From Acidobacteriota bacterium (GTDB lineage Bacteria; Acidobacteriota; Vicinamibacteria; Vicinamibacterales; UBA2999): a stretch of DNA of 64,000 bases. Under the pieces are notes generated by a model. That model did no database searches, had not been told where the DNA came from, and worked only from the letters and a program-made list of their open reading frames with translations. This document shows, in pieces, positions 13,652 to 19,763 of the stretch. The stretch covers positions 6,855 to 70,854 of the forward strand of contig JAUSDY010000063.1 in NCBI GenBank assembly GCA_030650395.1, read 5' to 3'. Both the position numbers and the translations under genes were made by a program. The stretch's first letter is position 1, and each line of letters opens with the position of its first letter.

Positions 13652-15084
13652 TGATCAATGGCAGCGGCCGCGCGCCGGCCGTCGTCAATCGCCCAGACGA
13701 TAAGCGACTGACCTCGCTGCATGTCGCCGGCAGCAAAGACACCGGGAACGCTCGTCATCCATTGCTCATCGCGCGCGACGGTGCCGCGGTCGTTGATGCG
13801 AACATCGAGCTCGGCCAGCAATCGGCTCTTCTCGGGGCCGACGAACCCCATCGCAAGCAGCACGAGATCGGCTTTCATTTCGAACGCGCTGTTTGCAACA
13901 GGCTCGAAACTGACGCGGCCACCAGAGACGGTGCGCTCGACGCGGTGGCCGTGGAGCATGCGGACGTGTCCGCTGTCATCGCCAGTGAGCTCTGTAGTGG
14001 CAACGGCGTAGACGCGATCGCCGCCTTCTTCGTGCGCCGGCGACGTGCGAAAGACGTTCGGCCATAACGGCCACGGATTGTCGGCCGCTCGTTCCTGCGG
14101 AGGCGTGGGCAACAATTCGAGCTGGCTCACCGATGCCGCGCCCTGGCGATGCACGGTGCCAAGGCAATCCGCGCCGGTGTCGCCGCCGCCGATGATGATG
14201 ACGTGTTTGCCTTCGGCCCAAAGGGCATTAGCGGAGCTAAAGCTCCGCTCTACGGCACCGTTGTCGAGGTCATCGCCCTGGCAGCGGCGGTTTTGCTGGG
14301 TCAGGTATGGCATCGCGAAGTGGACGCCGTCGAGACCGCGGCCGGGCACGTTGAGATCGCGCGGCTGGCCCGCGCCGCCGGCAAGAAGAACCGCGTCGAA
14401 GTCACGCTGCAGGTCCTGGGCCGTCACGTCCACGCCGACATCGACGCGCGTCCGGAACACCACGCCCTCGGCCGCCAGCAGATCGAGGCGGCGATCGAGC
14501 ACGCGCTTTTCCATCTTGAACTCGGGAATGCCGTAGCGCAGCAGCCCGCCAACGCGATCTGACTTCTCGAACACGGTCACGCTGTGGCCAGCGGCGTTGA
14601 GCTGCGCGGCCGCCGCGAGGCCGGCCGGTCCCGAGCCGACGATGGCCACTTTCTTCCAGGTGCGCGTCGGCGGCGGCTGCGGAACGATCCACTCTTCGTC
14701 GAACGCGCGATCGACAATGGCGAGCTCGATTGACTTGATGGTGACGGGATCCTTATTGATCCCCAGCACGCACGATCCTTCGCACGGCGCCGGACACAGC
14801 AGGCCCGTGAACTCAGGAAAGTTGTTGGTCTGGTGCAGGCGCTCGATCGCCGCTCGCCACGAATCGCGGTAGACCAGATCGTTCCAGTCGGGGATGAGGT
14901 TGCCGAGCGGGCAGCCTTGGTGACAGAACGGGATGCCGCAGTCCATGCAGCGCGCGGCCTGGCGCGTCAGGTCCTCGACCGGATAGGCCTTGTAGACGTG
15001 CCGATAGTCGCCAATACGTTCGGCAATGGGTCTGGAGGGCTGTTTCACCCTCGAGAACTCTATGAAACCTGTGGCTTTACCCAT
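13636..15084 (-). CDS. gltD: Glutamate synthase (NADPH) small subunit
   Basis: 482 aa; CMDCGIPFC...CPLGN Fe-S motifs; GSGPAGLAAA dinucleotide fold; directly downstream of gltB. Confidence 0.95.
   Translation of the reverse strand: MGKATGFIEFSRVKQPSRPIAERIGDYRHVYKAYPVEDLTRQAARCMDCGIPFCHQGCPLGNLIPDWNDLVYRDSWRAAIERLHQTNNFPEFTGLLCPAPCEGSCVLGINKDPVTIKSIELAIVDRAFDEEWIVPQPPPTRTWKKVAIVGSGPAGLAAAAQLNAAGHSVTVFEKSDRVGGLLRYGIPEFKMEKRVLDRRLDLLAAEGVVFRTRVDVGVDVTAQDLQRDFDAVLLAGGAGQPRDLNVPGRGLDGVHFAMPYLTQQNRRCQGDDLDNGAVERSFSSANALWAEGKHVIIIGGGDTGADCLGTVHRQGAASVSQLELLPTPPQERAADNPWPLWPNVFRTSPAHEEGGDRVYAVATTELTGDDSGHVRMLHGHRVERTVSGGRVSFEPVANSAFEMKADLVLLAMGFVGPEKSRLLAELDVRINDRGTVARDEQWMTSVPGVFAAGDMQRGQSLIVWAIDDGRRAAAAIDHYLTR
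14231..14253 (-). repeat. GTAG-hairpin micro-element A7
   Basis: + strand GCGGAGC TAAA GCTCCGC TCTAC; in frame in gltD (VERSFSSA). Confidence 0.85.
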
Positions 15085-15122
15085 TGCGTGACAGTTCAGA
15101 GTGCAGAGTTAACAGTTAAGAG
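15085..15122 (-). repeat. E-type intercistronic spacer E1 (gltB-gltD)
   Basis: Coding strand after the gltB stop: CTCTTAACTGTTAACTCTGCACTCTGAACTGTCACGCA then ATG of gltD; no purine-rich SD. Confidence 0.75.
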
Positions 15123-18100: not shown

Positions 18101-19763
18101 CCTCCGGGCCGATGGTGCCGCCCATCGAGGTCACGAGCTCTTCGCGGATCGCATCGAGCGGCGGGTTGGTCACCTGCGCGAACAACTGCGTGAAGTAGTC
18201 GTAGAGCAGCCGCGGCTTATCCGACAACACCGCAAGAGCGGTGTCGGTGCCCATCGAGCCGAGCGCCTCTTCGCCGTTCTGCGCCATCGGCGTCATCAGC
18301 ACGCGCAGATCCTCGTGCGTGTAACCAAACGCCTGCTGCCGCCGCAGCACGGTCTGGTGATCGGGCCGCTCGGCGGCCGCGCTCGGCAGGTCCGCCATAT
18401 CGACGAGGTTCTGCCGCAGCCAGTCGCCGTACGGATACTCGGCGGCCAGGGTCTGCTTGATCTCGGTGTCGCTGATGATGCGCCCTTGCCCGGTGTCGAT
18501 CAGCAGCATCTTGCCGGGACGCAGGCGATCTTTCCGCACGACGCGATCGGCCGGGATCTCGAGCACGCCGACTTCCGACGCCATGATCACGAGATCGTCT
18601 GTCGTGATGCAGTAGCGCGACGGCCGCAAGCCGTTGCGGTCGAGCACGGCGCCAATCAGCGTGCCGTCGGTGAACGTGATCGACGCCGGCCCGTCCCAGG
18701 GTTCCATCAGGCACGAGTGGTACTCGTAGAACGCGCGCACCGCCGCATCCATCGCCGGATTGCCGGCCCACGGCTCCGGGATCATCATCAACACCGCGTG
18801 CGGCAGCGAGCGCCCCGCCATCACGAGGAACTCGAGCACGTTGTCGAACGTGGCGGTGTCACTACCGCCGGGTGTCACGACGGGCAGGACCTTCTTGAGC
18901 TCTGCGCCGAACACGCTCGACTCGAGCAGCGCCTCGCGCGCCTTCATCCAGTTGATGTTGCCGCGCAGCGTATTGATCTCGCCGTTGTGCGCAACGTAGC
19001 GGTACGGGTGTGCCAGCGGCCACGACGGGAATGTGTTGGTCGAGAAGCGCTGATGCACCAGCGCGAGGGCTGACTCGAATTCGAGATCGGAGAGATCGGG
19101 GAACATGCCTTCGATCTGCGAGGCGGTCAGCATGCCCTTGTAGATCAGCGTGTTGGCCGAGAGGCTGGCGATGTAGAAGTCTTTGAGGTGGTCGGCGCCG
19201 AGCGCAATCTGCGCGGCAGCGAGCTCGATGCGCTTGCGGATGATGTAGAGGCGGCGTTCCACCTTCGCCCCGCCTCCTCCGCCTTGCGGCGCTTCGGCGG
19301 ACAAGTCGTGTCCGCCGATGAATACTTGTTCGAAAACAGGGGCGACCGCAGCGGCGCTCTTCCCCACTTTCGCGAGACTGGTCGGAACCGTGCGCCATCC
19401 CAGGATGGTCTGCCCTTCTTCGATCGTGATGCGTTCGATGAGCGCGCGCAGTTGGGCGCGGGCCTTCGAGTCGGGCGGGAAAAAGACAAGGCCGGCGCCG
19501 TAGGCACCTGCGGGCGGCAACGCAAACGGCAATGCCTTGCGGAAGAACCGATCCGGCATCTGCACGAGAATGCCGGCGCCGTCGCCGGTGTCGGGGTCGG
19601 ACCCGCAGGCGCCGCGATGTTCGAGGTTGATGAGGAGCTCGAGCGCCTGGCTGACTATCGCGTGCGAGCGGACGCCCTTGATGTGCGCAACGAAACCGAC
19701 GCCGCAGGCGTCGTGCTCATCACTGGAGCGGTATAAGCCCCGCTGGTCACTTGGGTCGTCCAT
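15123..19763 (-). CDS. gltB: Glutamate synthase large subunit
   Basis: 1546 aa; amidotransferase N-terminus ...[17 protein letters not shown]/3Fe-4S central region, C-terminal GXGXG beta-helix ([11 protein letters not shown]). Confidence 0.97.
16009..16033 (-). repeat. GTAG-hairpin micro-element A8
   Basis: + strand GGCGCCCC ATAAA GGGGCGCC CTAC; in frame in gltB ([10 protein letters not shown]). Confidence 0.85.
17323..17345 (-). repeat. GTAG-hairpin micro-element A9
   Basis: + strand GCGGAAC TAAA GTTCCAC GCTAC (one arm mismatch), preceded by a partial duplicate ttcgcggaat; in frame in gltB ([14 protein letters not shown]). Confidence 0.8.
19263..19307 (-). repeat. C-type GC-rich element C2 inside gltB
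   Basis: Coding strand GACTTGTCCGCCGAAGCGCCGCAAGGCGGAGGAGGCGGGGCGAAGG ([15 protein letters not shown]); shares GACTTGTCC, GGCGGAGG.GG and GGCGAAGG blocks with C1. Confidence 0.55.

Follow-up and report, generated by a model that had tools for sequence, protein, structure and literature searches.

The glutamate synthase genes gltD and gltB of an Acidobacteriota bacterium carry four segments of extra codons, which we call A7 (in gltD), A8, A9 and C2 (in gltB). The genes lie in a stretch of 64,000 nucleotides of contig JAUSDY010000063.1 (assembly GCA_030650395.1), analyzed here as a whole and hereafter called the window. It is likely that A7, A8 and A9 are copies of a family of GTAG-tagged repetitive extragenic palindromic (REP) elements that has colonized a Vicinamibacterales lineage and is tolerated in frame, and that C2 arose in a separate event. 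A first-pass annotation of the window had described all four segments as repeats translated inside the two genes. Its peptides, with their sequences and coordinates, are exactly right in all four cases, and both open reading frames (ORFs) are intact as it said, with 482 and 1546 amino acids (aa) and no internal stops. Its view of the inserts as repeats holds for A7, A8 and A9, which belong to the hairpin family, and is not confirmed for C2, a real insert for which a repeat copy is not demonstrated.

The GTAG hairpin family and its copies in gltD and gltB

Read on the coding strand, A7, A8 and A9 each run from GTAG through an 8-bp stem and a loop of TTTA or TTTAT to the complementary stem, in perfect or near-perfect form (Table 1). 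The A7 hairpin is translated as V-E-R-S-F-S-S-A and sits within an insertion of about 30 nt; after the core of A9, part of its 3' arm (9 nt) is duplicated (TTCCGCGAA twice). The predicted folds of such hairpins are stable (-15 to -41 kcal/mol), with modest z-scores (-2.5 for A8, -1.9 for A9). The same architecture, a GT[AG]G head, a stem of 8-9 bp and a loop of TTTA, TTCA, TTTAT or TTTTA, is found in 12 copies and an imperfect one across the window, which fall into at least five stem subfamilies; the units measure 24-26 nt and the inserts 27-51 nt. In ten of these copies the stem is perfect over 8 bp or more, and each of the ten has GT[AG]G directly 5' of it; 200 dinucleotide shuffles gave 0.01 hairpins on average, never with the head. 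In 73 kb of close relatives we counted 15 hairpins, 11 of them with the head, and in 2.28 Mb of more distant loci eight, five of them with the head. Among the 4-nt loops of the perfect window hairpins, TTTA/TAAA outnumbers all others by far. Over the window and its relatives together the head is GTAG in about 20 of 31 copies and GTGG in four, the remainder being mostly one-base variants.

Members of the same stem subfamilies are found at unrelated sites and in relatives with as little as 70% GltD identity, A9 for instance sharing its subfamily with the intergenic copy at 31452-31475. At least eight of the 13 window copies are intragenic, as confirmed against orthologues. Four copies stand in frame in the gene for a molybdenum hydroxylase large subunit; two or three of them are missing in the orthologue of one relative (L169; we refer to related loci by such numbers) and one is shared with it. 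The adjacent pair in this gene stands head-to-tail and belongs to two subfamilies. The copy in the amino-acid permease gene was likewise compared with its L169 orthologue. The region of L081 orthologous to the copy at 13118-13142 contains two hairpins, and in L165-168 the TAG stop of gltB is supplied by a GTAG head. Along the window, every hairpin copy lies within the first 34 kb (8237-33812), and the part from 34 to 64 kb holds none.

Table 1. Glutamate synthase genes, their inserts and the hairpin copies (REP) in the window.
Feature	Sequence	Window position	Strand	Context
gltD, glutamate synthase small subunit		13636-15084	-	482 aa, ORF intact
gltB, glutamate synthase large subunit		15123-19763	-	1546 aa, ORF intact
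A7 peptide	AVERSFSSANA	14224-14256		GltD residues 277-287
A8 peptide	11 residues	16002-16034		GltB residues 1244-1254
A9 peptide	14 residues	17307-17348		GltB residues 806-819
C2 peptide	15 residues	19263-19307		GltB residues 153-167
A7 REP copy	GTAG AGCGGAGC TTTA GCTCCGCT	14230-14253	-	gltD sense strand
A8 REP copy	GTAG GGCGCCCC TTTAT GGGGCGCC	16009-16033	-	gltB sense strand, 27-nt insertion
A9 insertion, ~17 aa		17307-17375	-	central-to-FMN linker of gltB
A9 core REP	GTAG CGTGGAAC TTTA GTTCCGCG	17322-17345	-	one G·T pair
C2, GC-rich insertion, 7-8 aa		19263-19318	-	hypervariable, length-variable part of amidotransferase domain
REP	GTGG GGACAAACC TTTA GGTTTGTCC	8237-8262	+	intergenic
REP	GTAG GGCCCCCC TTTAT GGGGGGCC	9198-9222	+	molybdenum hydroxylase large-subunit gene (9114-11477), sense strand
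REP, first of adjacent pair	GTAG AGGCGGGTC TTTA GACCCGCCT	9592-9647	+	molybdenum hydroxylase gene, window-specific 10-aa insert
REP, second of adjacent pair	GTGG CGACAAACC TTTA GGTTTGTCG	9592-9647	+	molybdenum hydroxylase gene, common to L169
REP	GTGG AGACAAACC TTTA GGTTTGTCT	10978-11003	+	molybdenum hydroxylase gene; ~8-aa insert missing in L169 orthologue
REP	GTAG GGCACCCC TTTTA GGGGTGCC	13118-13142	-	between UDG-family gene and 304-aa gene
REP, imperfect	CGCGGAAG TTTA GTTCCGCG	26684-26705	+	amino-acid permease, part of extended C-terminus (..RKFSSAI..)
REP		27705-27730	-	loop, on + strand, is TAA stop of class IV aminotransferase gene (26728-27717)
REP	GTAG CGCGGAAC TTTA GTTCCGCG	31452-31475	+	intergenic, A9 subfamily
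REP	GTGG GGACAAACC TTTA GGTTTGTCC	33787-33812	-	~50 nt upstream of amidohydrolase gene start

Both proteins match solved glutamate synthase subunits from end to end and contain the expected Pfam domains, which in GltB are GATase_2 (20-448), the central domain (474-758), the flavin mononucleotide (FMN) domain (837-1204) and GXGXG (1294-1481). Mapped by these domain limits and by alignments to the solved structures, A9 (796-819) falls in the linker from the central to the FMN domain and A8 (1242-1254) in that from the FMN to the GXGXG domain. A7 directly precedes the second Rossmann motif of GltD, GGGDTG, in a loop whose length also varies in Actinomycetota and across phyla; one GltD peptide that spans the insert is SFSSANALWAEGK. 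An AlphaFold2 model of GltD built on a shallow alignment (41 close relatives, all at least 80% identical) reached a mean confidence (pLDDT) of only 45, too low for placing the loop.

An 8-bp stem with a TTTA-G loop contains TAG in two of the three sense frames, and A7 and A9 use the sole open one (GTA G.., giving V...FS). Copies with a 9-bp stem use the other frame, which is then open (..GT AG., giving ..PLG..), and those with a TTTAT loop have two open frames, both of which are used; every internal copy is read in a frame avoiding the TAG triplets. In the window, fully internal copies always have GTAG on the sense strand, in genes on either strand. At the C2 site, L171 has a hairpin in antisense, which rules out a strict sense-only rule. 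Nor do stop codons account for the sense bias: two frames stay open in antisense copies, and only one in sense copies with a TTTA loop.

C2 is of another kind. It is not a GTAG hairpin; it contains a run of glycine codons and a perfect 10-bp inverted repeat (19294-19318) whose upstream arm belongs to the conserved coding sequence that flanks the insert. No second copy of it was found within three mismatches. Its best gapped match, a three-block similarity with a score of 33, is the intergenic spacer upstream of gltB; a coding stretch that looks like a small gene on the minus strand, probably for a regulator, reached the same score by chance. With a spacer match no better than that to an unrelated coding stretch and no second copy, a repeat origin of C2 is not supported. 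A local copying error, in which adjacent sequence was copied in inverted orientation and glycine codons expanded, is the most likely origin, and it fits C2 better than a mobile element does.

Insertion history and selection across relatives

The four segments are lineage-specific in-frame insertions, and not ancestral. Against the 30-40 genome relatives among the matches listed, the best of which has 70% identity, the extra residues occur in the window alone (nine in GltD; 17, nine and seven in GltB for A9, A8 and C2). The solved Bacillus and Azospirillum enzymes, with which the earlier annotation had proposed an alignment, are likewise shorter at these places. Closer sets of about 120 proteins each for GltD (80-92% identical) and GltB gave a finer picture. 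A7 is shared by none of the 120 close GltD relatives, 43 of which have other inserts in the same loop; A8 is limited to the five closest of the 120 GltB relatives, a clade of at least 91% identity; and at the A9 and C2 sites many different inserts are found.

Presence/absence polymorphism among close relatives, another comparison that the earlier annotation had suggested, is observed directly in the DNA alignments. A7 is absent in L164, L166, L081 and L169, the four closest relatives with DNA, and is recent because it is missing from all of them. A8 is common to the window, L164, L166 and L081 and absent in L169 and L083. Its hairpin is perfect in the window and in L166, where 21 nt are identical despite a synonymous divergence (dS) of about 0.5, and it has been lost through synonymous changes in L164 and L081. 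The window shares GTAG CG[CT]GGAAC TT[TC]A GTTCCGCG with L166 and L169 at the A9 site; there L083 has GGAG GGCAGAAC TTTA GTTCTGCC, and L164 has two members of the GGCACCCC-TTTAT subfamily in tandem instead. The C2 site holds family hairpins in L164 and L169, the antisense hairpin in L171 and a (GGGCTCC)n run in L166, and the GltD loop of L170 contains yet another member of the hairpin family. At the junctions of A7 and A8 no target duplication is discernible.

Both genes are under purifying selection. Between the window and five relatives the ratio of non-synonymous to synonymous divergence (dN/dS) is 0.076-0.151, at dS of 0.5-0.86, and none of the genes has an internal stop. A8 has passed down a clade whose members differ by a dS of about 0.5. 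Of the six codons of its core, five have changed synonymously in L164 and none non-synonymously, the peptide APLYGA being kept, and therefore the inserted A8 peptide itself is now under constraint. The nearest named relatives of GltD and GltB are Vicinamibacterales, and the gene order amtB-glnK-gltB-gltD, in which both genes stand downstream of amtB and glnK, is kept in the window and its relatives. The earlier claim that the inserts are tolerated in frame, and do not mark dying genes, is borne out by these values (dN/dS of 0.08-0.15, no internal stops), by the constraint on the A8 peptide and by the linker and loop positions of the inserts. Since copies would survive only where the frame is kept, TAG is avoided and the site is permissive, we infer from their sequences that gltB and gltD are functional, repeat-decorated genes that encode active proteins.

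Proposed mobilization and rival explanations

In related contigs this hairpin type is linked to a transposase. A tblastn search with E. coli RayT against all the DNA compared led to L085, and the longer contig L173 has the same gene, an ORF of 176 aa with an HUH motif (HVH) and a YIxxNP tyrosine. Against the NCBIfam model for REP-associated tyrosine transposases (NF047646; cut-off 80) it reaches 110.5 bits, and it matches TnpArep (PDB 4ER8) with E = 3e-6. The gene adjoins gltD and stands between inverted hairpins, GTAG (A/C)GGCGGGTC TTYA GACCCGCC(T/G), one of them sharing its stem with the window copy at 9592. In L174 and L175 the arrangement is alike, with a different stem, and the proteins score 94.4 bits and, for the shorter called protein of L175, 68.7 bits, which is under the cut-off. 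Upstream of the transposase gene of L173 (1090-1182), the head and a partial 5' arm (TCAGTAGCGGCCGGGTC) are repeated about three times in tandem before a complete hairpin.

A transposase of this type presumably moved the gltBD copies. In the mechanism that we propose, REPs would spread in trans through a REP-associated tyrosine (HUH/Y1) transposase recognizing head and hairpin on single-stranded DNA. Within genes, survival would call for a length that keeps the frame, a frame free of the TAG triplets of head and loop, and a permissive loop or inter-domain linker. Surviving copies would then add 8-17 residues to the protein in translation, pass to descendants and gradually erode through substitutions.

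Several observations weigh against a family of mobile REPs as the source of the inserts. Scanning 33 window ORFs with Pfam brought up no transposase. The A7 stem in its exact form, AGCGGAGC, occurs once in all the DNA compared, and C2 falls outside the GTAG hairpin family altogether. The flanking loop sequence has diverged as well, which blurs the ends of the inserts and any duplication of the target. In different lineages one and the same site (A9, C2 or the GltD loop) is taken by different subfamilies, and internal copies, counted as independent events with relatives included, are oriented about 15 sense to one antisense; repeated occupation of sites and such an orientation are not predicted by random insertion followed by a filter. 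It is conceivable, although we consider it rather doubtful, that GTAG REPs here preferentially enter or persist in coding sequence, with the head nearly always in sense and the same GltB and GltD linkers repeatedly occupied. If this were true, it would point to transcription-coupled insertion into the non-template single strand, to targeting of or replacement at hairpin-bearing sites, or to a role at the RNA level, and REPs would regularly supply variation in protein loops to a free-living soil bacterium.

The hairpins could instead be selected functional structures of RNA or DNA, stabilizing the mRNA or pausing translation at domain boundaries, and not passive selfish inserts. Such a role would account for the reading of nearly all internal copies as GUAG..UUYA.. 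on the mRNA of genes from both strands, for the location of A8 and A9 exactly in inter-domain linkers, and for the strong predicted folds. It would also suit further observations: the sole imperfect pair of A9 is a G·T on the sense strand, the stem at the A9 site of L083 has two compensated changes around the same loop, and the 21 nt of the A8 hairpin shared by the window and L166 have remained identical at a dS of about 0.5. However, A7 is absent in the four closest relatives with DNA, and in L164 and L081 the A8 hairpin was lost by synonymous changes that kept the peptide. The same elements occur in intergenic DNA and unrelated genes, a copy stands in antisense at the C2 site of L171, an Rfam scan of the window gave no match except a tRNA, and the z-scores are modest, so that we hold this explanation to be unlikely. 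A still less probable one is that the inserts are local replication errors, produced by template switching or slippage, whose likeness is convergent and owes nothing to a mobile element. The conserved flank that forms one arm of the C2 inverted repeat, as in a snap-back copy, and its glycine codons are of this kind, as are the 9-nt tandem duplication of the A9 3' arm and the (GGGCTCC)n run of L166, but the head, loop and stem subfamilies of A7-A9 recur at unrelated loci and in other genomes and the same hairpins flank transposase genes. Local error is therefore plausible for C2 only. Finally, the genes bearing inserts might be decaying or redundant copies, or the hairpins artefacts of assembly. 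The source is a metagenome-assembled genome, and a single window leaves room for a second gltBD copy; yet the ORFs are intact with a dN/dS of about 0.08, the amtB-glnK-gltB-gltD order is conserved and the same inserts are found at the same sites in independent assemblies (NCBI, JGI, ENA), which makes this the least credible of the explanations considered. Mobile GTAG REPs tolerated in frame, with C2 apart, are the reading that we retain for gltD and gltB.

Related repeat systems and other features of the window

The hairpins of gltBD are members of the GTAG-tagged REP superfamily, in which intragenic units are already known; striking here are their unusual local density within genes, the sense-strand bias and the repeated use of the same loops. 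The superfamily was defined by Di Nocera, De Gregorio and Rocco (2013) by stems of 5-13 bp and short loops, often 'TY', with GTGG variants of the head, subfamilies of complementary stems, several families per genome and an association with REP-associated tyrosine transposases (PMC3733652). The window repeats agree with it in the GT[AG]G head of all ten perfect copies, including the GTGG variant, in stems within a range of 6-9 bp (8-9 bp here) and in a loop that fits 'TY' if the T·A of TTYA is counted as stem. They agree too in being dispersed (12-13 copies in 64 kb), in forming subfamilies of complementary stems and several families per genome, in single units translated in frame, in heads supplying TAG stops (here in L165-168) and in a transposase gene flanked by the same REPs (here in related contigs). 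The superfamily includes units in frame within known proteins, at about eight residues per unit, mostly in Opitutus terrae, which has some 70 mentions in the list of intragenic REPs (Additional file 3). These units are a recognized minority state, and its authors related them to the palindromic elements of Rickettsia; neither glutamate synthase nor any REP family of Acidobacteriota is listed (PMC3733652). In contrast to the predominantly extragenic copies of the superfamily, at least 8 of 13 are intragenic in 64 kb here, mostly as single units and not as dimers, and neither the phylum nor the host genes gltB and gltD figure in the lists of that paper.

Rickettsia palindromic elements (RPEs) are in-frame inserts in conserved genes (Ogata et al. 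2000, cited in PMC3733652), and RPE-4 and RPE-6 are elements of the CGTC type (PMC3733652). Common to RPEs and the present hairpins are palindromic repeats in frame in conserved, still functional genes, the RPE inserts forming extra surface segments. RPE-1 is about 100-150 bp long and its hosts are obligate intracellular bacteria with reduced genomes, whereas we find elements of 24-26 nt and inserts of 27-51 nt in a free-living soil host, a comparison made by description and not by sequence. The REPs of E. coli are longer, imperfect palindromes, essentially all extragenic and often in arrays called bacterial interspersed mosaic elements (BIMEs). With this REP/BIME system and its TnpArep transposase (RayT; PDB 4ER8) the present repeats share the GTAG head beside the hairpin and a transposase gene between inverted REPs; they differ in having hairpins of 24-26 nt that are perfect and often intragenic. 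Transposable elements of the miniature inverted-repeat type (MITEs), with terminal inverted repeats of 15-30 bp, lengths of 70-300 bp and a target-site duplication, also differ from these units of 24-26 nt, for which no duplication is discernible at A7 or A8. REPINs, attributed to Bertels and Rainey (2011), are said to be inverted REP doublets with a short spacer that act as one unit, present in many copies per genome and thought to be mobilized by the same type of transposase. Unlike them, A7, A8 and A9 are singlets, inverted pairs being seen, in the loci scanned, only around transposase genes and in L092.

Translated REP-type repeats in essential genes extend beyond Rickettsia, Opitutus and a few Proteobacteria and are also locally dense in Vicinamibacterales. 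They provide a natural map of the places where glutamate synthase accepts 8-25 extra residues, namely two inter-domain linkers, one loop of the amidotransferase and, in GltD, the loop that precedes the NADPH Rossmann motif. In practical terms such inserts inflate variation in protein length and can mislead alignments and the gene-calling quality checks of metagenome-assembled genomes, and they could act as fine-scale strain markers. The sense-strand bias, together with the repeated occupation of the same sites, offers a concrete system for how REPs choose or keep their positions.

Other repeats are found alongside the GTAG hairpins. A 53-nt repeat, CCCTTCGACTCG..hairpin..CTCGCTCAGGGCAGGCG, occurs at 26509-26561 and 29616-29668 in copies that are 89% identical, one within the amino-acid permease gene with a rebuilt loop (..PSTRSRPFRGGTSLRAG..) and the other intergenic; peptides ending in ..SLRAG or ..SLRA are also inserted near GltB residue 718 in several relatives. 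Long, AT-richer intergenic palindromes, CAGGAGGTCAGGAGAAA..TTTCTCCTGACCTCCTG, with stems of 12-17 bp (12066-12111 and 35541-35601), look like a further repeat family, to which a CAGGAGGTCAGGAGACCAGGAGGAA stretch near 8556-8580 is related. The spacer between gltB and gltD (15085-15122 in the window) ranges from a stop/start overlap in L083 up to 129 nt, and is filled by another type of palindromic repeat, with CACAGAGA-like arms, in L164 (4684-4812), L081 (1827-1892) and L169 (14624-14743).

About 75 nt upstream of the gltB start (19764-19840) are conserved between the window, L166, L169 and L083 and include a 7-bp hairpin, TCTCTCT..AGAGAGA, adjoining the start codon. This stretch, for which Rfam gave no match, may be a leader or regulatory element. 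The sole Rfam match in the window is a tRNA gene (2468-2538, minus strand). The ORF of 304 aa at 12121-13035, without a Pfam match, contains a 15-nt tandem repeat (12687-12833) encoding QQRDW-like units. On the minus strand, a GSDH-family ORF (28001-28759) is shorter than its L169 orthologue by about 138 N-terminal residues, and the ORF at 28785-29597 covers just positions 90-233 of the 370 of the T2SSE ATPase profile. A half-hairpin, GGGGTGCCCTAC, lies between these two ORFs, which look like gene remnants of a rearrangement.

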